Below, in pieces: positions 31,276 to 31,767 of a DNA stretch of 64,000 nucleotides (position 1 is its first letter; every line of letters starts with the position of its first letter). The stretch is from Escherichia coli. GTDB taxonomy: Bacteria; Pseudomonadota; Gammaproteobacteria; Enterobacterales; Enterobacteriaceae. A model generated the notes under the pieces. That model was not told where the DNA came from. It searched no databases and saw nothing but the letters and a program-made list of their open reading frames with translations. The stretch is taken from NCBI RefSeq assembly GCF_013315695.1, contig NZ_CP054353.1; one strand, written 5' to 3'. A program made the translations under genes and the position numbers.

Positions 31276-31767
31276 TGAAGCCACGAAATATTAATAATAG
31301 CCTACCACTGCAACCATTAGTTCCTGATCAGGAGAACAAAAATAAGAAAAATGAAGAGAAATACGTGAATCCAGTTAAAATCACGATGAGGTCTGGTTTA
31401 AATTATATTGAACAAGAATCTCTTGGAGGAAAAATATCTAACACATGATTTGTCAATAAAGATAGCGGATATTTCTGAAGAGATAATTCAGCAAGCAATA
31501 TTATCGGCCATGAGCATATATAAATTTCCGATAACAGATGATTTAATGAGTATGGCTACAAATGAACTCATAAAACTGGCCAAAATAGAGAATAATTTAG
31601 ACCTGAATAAATTCTCTACTATATGTACCGACGTTCTATCCCCCCTCGTCACCAGACATAATAAAGAAAAAAAACCAGACGACTTACTACCCTTCGCAAA
31701 AATCCCTTTTTTAATTTTCATCGAAAAAATGGAAATTGATAATATGAATCCAGGCCATGCACATTAA
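31276..31767 (+). pseudogene. ygeF: ygeF, frameshifted ETT2 gene
   Basis: ATG at 31276 opens a frame (MKPRNINNSLPLQPLVPDQENKNKKNEEKYVNPVKITMRSGLNYIEQESLGGKISNT) that stops at 31444-31446, while an overlapping second frame (31408..31767) continues; two frames required for one product. Confidence 0.55.

Follow-up and report, generated by a model that had tools for sequence, protein, structure and literature searches.

The ygeF locus and its two reading frames

The window, by which is meant the entire 64,000-nt stretch of Escherichia coli DNA that was analysed, carries a nearly complete ETT2 type III secretion island, extending from yqeH to the glyU tRNA gene (55405-55478). It is 100% identical to E. 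coli MS 21-1 (NZ_CP146670.1). The ygeF gene lies inside the island in AT-rich surroundings (31% G+C) and is identified there by synteny, between the divergently oriented yqeK and ygeG and within the yqeHIJK-ygeFGH gene order; these are also the neighbours that an earlier, sequence-only reading of this DNA had given it (Table 1). In MS 21-1, PGAP annotates exactly the segment from 31275 to 31767 as a pseudo-CDS, V9Z47_RS05170, 'hypothetical protein, frameshifted'.

Two overlapping open frames share the segment. The first (ORF1) starts at the ATG at 31275 and runs for 57 codons to a TGA at 31446-31448; the second (ORF2) lies in the +1 frame with respect to it and spans 31408-31767, with 119 codons counted from a TTG and a TAA at 31765-31767. 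The sequence-only reading had seen the gene as split over these two frames and had the length of the first one right, but had put its ATG at 31276 and its stop at 31444.

Table 1. Features of the ygeF region, with two further ETT2 genes flagged by PGAP (positions in the window)
Feature	Position	Strand	Remarks
26-codon CDS WP_072132081.1, between yqeJ and yqeK	30304-30384	-	Conserved in K-12 and O157:H7 annotations
yqeK	30420-30845	-	Left neighbour, divergent orientation; PGAP annotation
ygeF pseudogene, whole extent	31275-31767	+	493 nt; end-to-end alignment with the intact O157:H7 gene
ygeF 5' frame (ORF1)	31275-31448	+	53 native codons (M1-K53), 4 out-of-frame codons (ISNT), then TGA
GGAGG, codons GGA GGA of Gly51-Gly52	31425-31429	+	Shine-Dalgarno-like; directly 5' of the A-run
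A5 homopolymer, +1 insertion site	31430-31434	+	A4 or GAAA in intact alleles
ygeF 3' part, +1 frame	31435-31767	+	Native codons Y54-H163 and TAA
Second A-run of ygeF (G-A8-CC)	31667-31674	+	Intact-type in the window
ygeG	31993-32484	+	Right neighbour; TPR protein, SicA-like class II chaperone homologue
YscQ/HrcQ (sctQ/epaO) gene	One of 43746-44733, 45337-45567	-	'Frameshifted' (PGAP)
Hypothetical CDS between eivI-like and eivJ-like genes	One of 43746-44733, 45337-45567	-	'Incomplete' (PGAP)

The lesion

Alignment with the O157:H7 gene and 16 other loci shows a sole frame-changing difference, an additional base in the window's A-run (31430-31434). At this place the window has GGAGG-AAAAA-TATC, as against GGAGG-AAAA-TATC or GGAGG-GAAA-TATC elsewhere. 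(The GGAGG is native, being found in intact ygeF alleles as well.) A premature stop follows 12 nt after the added A. When one A is removed computationally, the window encodes a 163-aa protein that is letter for letter the intact protein encoded by at least 1000 public contigs and is also the UniRef 'YgeF protein' A0A0J3YQN2; its amino acid identity with the O157:H7 protein is 91% over the full length. Between the repaired protein and the intact record there is no amino acid change on either side of the lesion, and the insertion is therefore recent, none having accumulated since.

The alignments, the repair and the PGAP label support the interpretation of ygeF in the window as a frameshift pseudogene that would have arisen by a single-base indel in one ancestral gene, as had been proposed from the sequence. 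The proposal had come with the suggestion of looking for a homopolymer at the junction of the frames and of aligning intact homologues; the junction turns out to hold the A5 run, and the homologues are one 163-codon gene and not two separate ones.

The intact gene

O157:H7 has at the ygeF position an intact gene of 492 nt and 163 codons (WP_000804528.1), which is ECs3707/ygeF of the Sakai strain. It is orthologous to the window's copy and differs from it in being unbroken, with GGAGG-GAAA-TATC at the site of the lesion. The 163-codon frame is also intact in the three closest relatives sampled, Z226-7, WCHEC040047 and 19A14 (98-99% nucleotide identity), and 163-aa E. coli YgeF proteins number in the hundreds in the protein database.

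At the composition of the gene (41% A, 32% G+C), an open frame of 163 codons has a chance probability of about 2e-6, and none of 20,000 shuffled sequences kept the frame open; in the intact gene, the five remaining frames have 5-21 stops each. The dN/dS ratio is 0.36 between the window and O157 and 0.42-0.46 in comparisons with a divergent orthologue (described below), that is, below 1 but above most of the four flanking genes, for which it is 0.08-0.34. Since the frame is open far beyond chance and dN/dS is below 1, ygeF is, on these measures, to be regarded as having once been a genuine, if weakly constrained, coding gene.

Distribution of the A5 allele

A search of 5,426 complete E. coli genomes found the ygeF locus in 3,589. 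Among the 3,575 complete genomes that match the junction segment, three carry the full-length A5 allele: MS 21-1 (USA), AF3 (UK, from blood) and MSB1_4I (Australia), the last two each differing from the window at 1 of 1,289 nt. (These and the other ygeF allele counts given here come from short megablast queries and are approximate, the identity bands mixing SNP variants.) In a larger collection, the exact 57-aa product is encoded on at least 1000 contigs; in MS 21-1 it is EFK22169.1. The clone with the ygeF lesion is thus a successful one, which is compatible with neutrality of the lesion without being proof of it.

A different lesion in K-12

In its ETT2 remnant, K-12 has the same gene (ygeF, b2850), likewise flanked by yqeK and ygeG; there too it is frameshifted by a change of homopolymer length, and PGAP calls both copies 'frameshifted'. 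The lesions are not the same one. That of the K-12 type lies approximately 240 nt downstream of the window's, in the second A-run, which has contracted from A9 to A8 to A7; besides K-12, the majority of phylogroup A/B1-like genomes have a contracted tract here. An intact allele of the K-12 family, P0004 (...KEKKTND...), implies A9; many genomes have A8 and a ygeF of 491 nt (-1); and K-12 itself has A7 (-2), 490 nt and a 148-codon frame. This looks like stepwise contraction following a first frameshift. K-12 has A4 at the first run and -2 at the second; in the window it is the first run that is altered (+1), and the second is intact. There is in the window no contraction from A9 to A8 or A7 followed by CAAACGAC; its sequence is G-A8-CCAGACGAC, which is the intact type of its own clade. 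The name ygeF, used in the sequence-only reading, calls to mind the K-12 pseudogene, but the lesion of that pseudogene is not the one present here. Judged by position and by allele counts, the window's lesion is independent of K-12's and much rarer.

The K-12 allele family at the second site is found in about 2,186 of the 5,426 complete genomes, the exact K-12 sequence in 981 of them, and the in-frame A9 length in none of 39 sampled members of the family. No change of length at the second site was seen in the sampled members of the window-type family (577 genomes at ≥95% identity) or of the O157-type family (382 genomes at ≥95%). About 430 locus-bearing genomes fall outside all three families. 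Approximately, then, some 60% of the locus-bearing complete genomes are frameshifted at the second site and one quarter look intact there.

One further variant of the K-12 type was noted in E. coli ECO12 (NZ_CP090327.1; L020, 148-636), in which A7 is joined by an additional -1 in a C6 run approximately 25 nt upstream. The net change of -3 reopens a frame of 162 codons with a short aberrant stretch, SPASPDIIKKKTND; the PGAP label remains that of a frameshifted gene.

Origin of the lesion and alternatives to simple decay

The explanation that we hold with high confidence is that a +1 replication slippage in a short homopolymer generated a null or near-null allele of ygeF that became fixed in one clone, as an instance of a dispensable gene decaying neutrally. 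Slippage would have added one A to an A4 run in the clone to which this strain belongs. Ribosomes starting at the ATG of ORF1 would translate 53 correct and 4 wrong codons before terminating at its TGA, and the remaining 110 codons, lying in the +1 frame and lacking an ATG or Shine-Dalgarno sequence of their own, would most likely go untranslated. The A5 allele is one among several inactivations that arose independently in a gene that is weakly constrained and lineage-restricted, within an island undergoing decay across E. coli. We infer that ygeF has lost its function in the A5 clone, with the reservation that some YgeF activity could persist, through the N-terminal fragment of 53 residues or through frameshift read-through at a low level.

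That reservation has a stronger form, in which ribosomes would shift by +1 at GGAGG-A-AAA-AUA (31425-31436), whether leakily or in a programmed way, and so restore full-length YgeF. The tRNA-Lys paired with AAA at 31431-31433 would slip to AAA at 31432-31434, and decoding of TAT would then continue the wild-type sequence, ...LGGK-YLTHD. The site has some of what this would take: the P-site codon re-pairs perfectly in the +1 frame, a perfect Shine-Dalgarno-like GGAGG lies immediately upstream, the A-site codon of the 0 frame is AUA, a rare codon in E. coli, and the protein would be rescued by slippage at any point within 31408-31445, the +1 frame being open from 31408 on. In its Shine-Dalgarno-like element, its re-pairable P-site codon and its slow A-site codon, it recalls the programmed +1 frameshift of prfB. 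There, however, the spacing from the Shine-Dalgarno sequence to the codon is 3 nt, whereas at the ygeF site it is 1 nt, and the ygeF site presents a rare sense codon and no stop codon in the A site. Nor is it conserved: it is confined to one clone (3 of 3,575 genomes), the other sampled alleles being of the single-frame A4 or GAAA kind. Because it is found in one clone only, the site cannot be an evolved recoding signal, and the likeness to prfB is probably a resemblance only. We consider restoration of YgeF by frameshifting quite improbable, and there is only a slim chance that the lesion is leaky in the sense of a recoding site like that of prfB, accidental and newly arisen, with the clone retaining a reduced dose of YgeF.

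Phase variation, with ygeF a contingency gene switched by the length of its homopolymers, has a very low probability. It could draw on the fact that both known lesion sites are A-runs, on the occurrence of A7, A8 and A9 at the second tract in different genomes, and on the compensating -1 in the nearby C-run of ECO12, which reopens the frame. Tracts of contingency genes are typically at least 7-8 nt long, however, and the one in the window, at 4-5 nt, is far below lengths that switch usefully. The alleles behave, moreover, as if fixed in their lineages, with 981 identical K-12 alleles, three near-identical A5 genomes and no in-frame A9 among the 39 sampled K-12-family members.

An extra base in a homopolymer is a classic error of 454, nanopore and PacBio sequencing, and just three complete genomes carry A5, so that an intact gene misread or misassembled might come to mind. 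We give this practically no credence: those three genomes were sequenced independently and in three countries, the exact 57-aa product was already encoded in the HMP draft of MS 21-1 from 2010, the same product occurs among the GenBank proteins of several other strains and on at least 1000 contigs, and a run of five bases is too short to be a frequent site of error. Because independent assemblies share it, sequencing error is excluded, and the A5 lesion is a recent clonal event. As for the two frames being two genuine, separate genes, both are indeed open (for 57 and 119 codons), but every sampled homologue without the extra A is a single continuous 163-codon ORF, the junction coincides with a single-base difference, ORF2 starts inside ORF1, at a TTG with no Shine-Dalgarno sequence, and its first in-frame ATG (at about 31510) has no obvious one either, so that single-ORF homologues and the missing start signal of ORF2 effectively exclude it.

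ygeF in a decaying island

In the literature ETT2 is widely distributed, with frameshifts, deletions and pseudogenes throughout, and the idea of its 'widespread mutational attrition', with the phrase itself, is credited in reviews to Ren et al. (2004). The frameshifted ygeF of the window lies in an island with other broken genes (the last two entries of Table 1) and appears to be a case of that known kind, different in no essential way and adding one allele to it. Separately, a gene for a small toxin of the GhoT/OrtT family is annotated at 53315-53494, at the glyU-proximal edge of ETT2 and beside a gene for a glycoside hydrolase of family 15.

A more distant form of the locus was found on a contig from Logan (SRR36547128; L017) that is approximately 87% identical to E. 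coli ETT2 at the nucleotide level and has the syntenic order yqeI-yqeJ-yqeK-ygeF-ygeG. Its yqeI and yqeJ products are 94-98% identical to those of E. coli. Its ygeF (2745-3143) is 51% identical and stops at 132 aa, with a C-terminal remnant in another frame, extending to approximately 3250; by these signs it is independently truncated and frameshifted. Values of dS vary along the contig, from about 0.1 for yqeI and yqeJ to 0.3-0.8 for yqeK, ygeF and ygeG, a mosaic that suggests recombination.

The YgeF family

Searches with the YgeF sequence of Pfam, NCBIfam and the PDB gave no match at E≤10. A HMMER search of 1.84 billion representative sequences returned only fragments of E. coli YgeF, one syntenic orthologue with 51% identity and a match to a repeat protein at 3e-4 that was judged to be spurious; by these and the protein-database searches, homologues of YgeF are confined to Escherichia ETT2. 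An AlphaFold2 model, made from a shallow alignment of 13 sequences, is poor (mean pLDDT 49.9) and at that confidence shows residues 1-36, at the N-terminus, as disordered, with helices over roughly residues 38-131 and 145-157; no PDB structure matched this model in Foldseek at E≤0.001. In the surrounding DNA, an Rfam scan (30300-32600) gave just a sub-threshold chance match, promoter-like sites around ygeF were fewer than in shuffled sequence, and no terminator-like sites were found.

The expectation, voiced in the sequence-only reading, that an effector or translocator gene might occupy this place finds no support in these data: YgeF shows no similarity to such families in sequence or fold (Pfam, NCBIfam, PDB and Foldseek), and the translocator-like genes associated with ETT2 are discussed in the literature at a separate locus, selC/eip. 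Reviews of ETT2 list ygeF just as an ORF without function; in K-12 there is a GadX ChIP peak at yqeK/ygeF/ygeH; and the gene appears in a listing of H-NS-associated promoters and in a TraDIS table. No function is given in the last three of these. It has been reported to be absent from E. albertii.

Significance

Much of this was already known: the ygeF lesion is annotated in RefSeq, and decay by frameshift has been described for ETT2. The separateness of the window's allele from that of K-12, and its greater rarity, are a minor new detail. By itself the loss matters little, ygeF being an Escherichia-restricted ORF of unknown function in a decaying island. Taken together with the contraction in K-12, the decay in the divergent Logan contig and the reported absence from E. 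albertii, it places ygeF among the most repeatedly lost genes of ETT2. Where the presence or integrity of ygeF is to serve as a marker for ETT2, both of its A-runs need to be typed.
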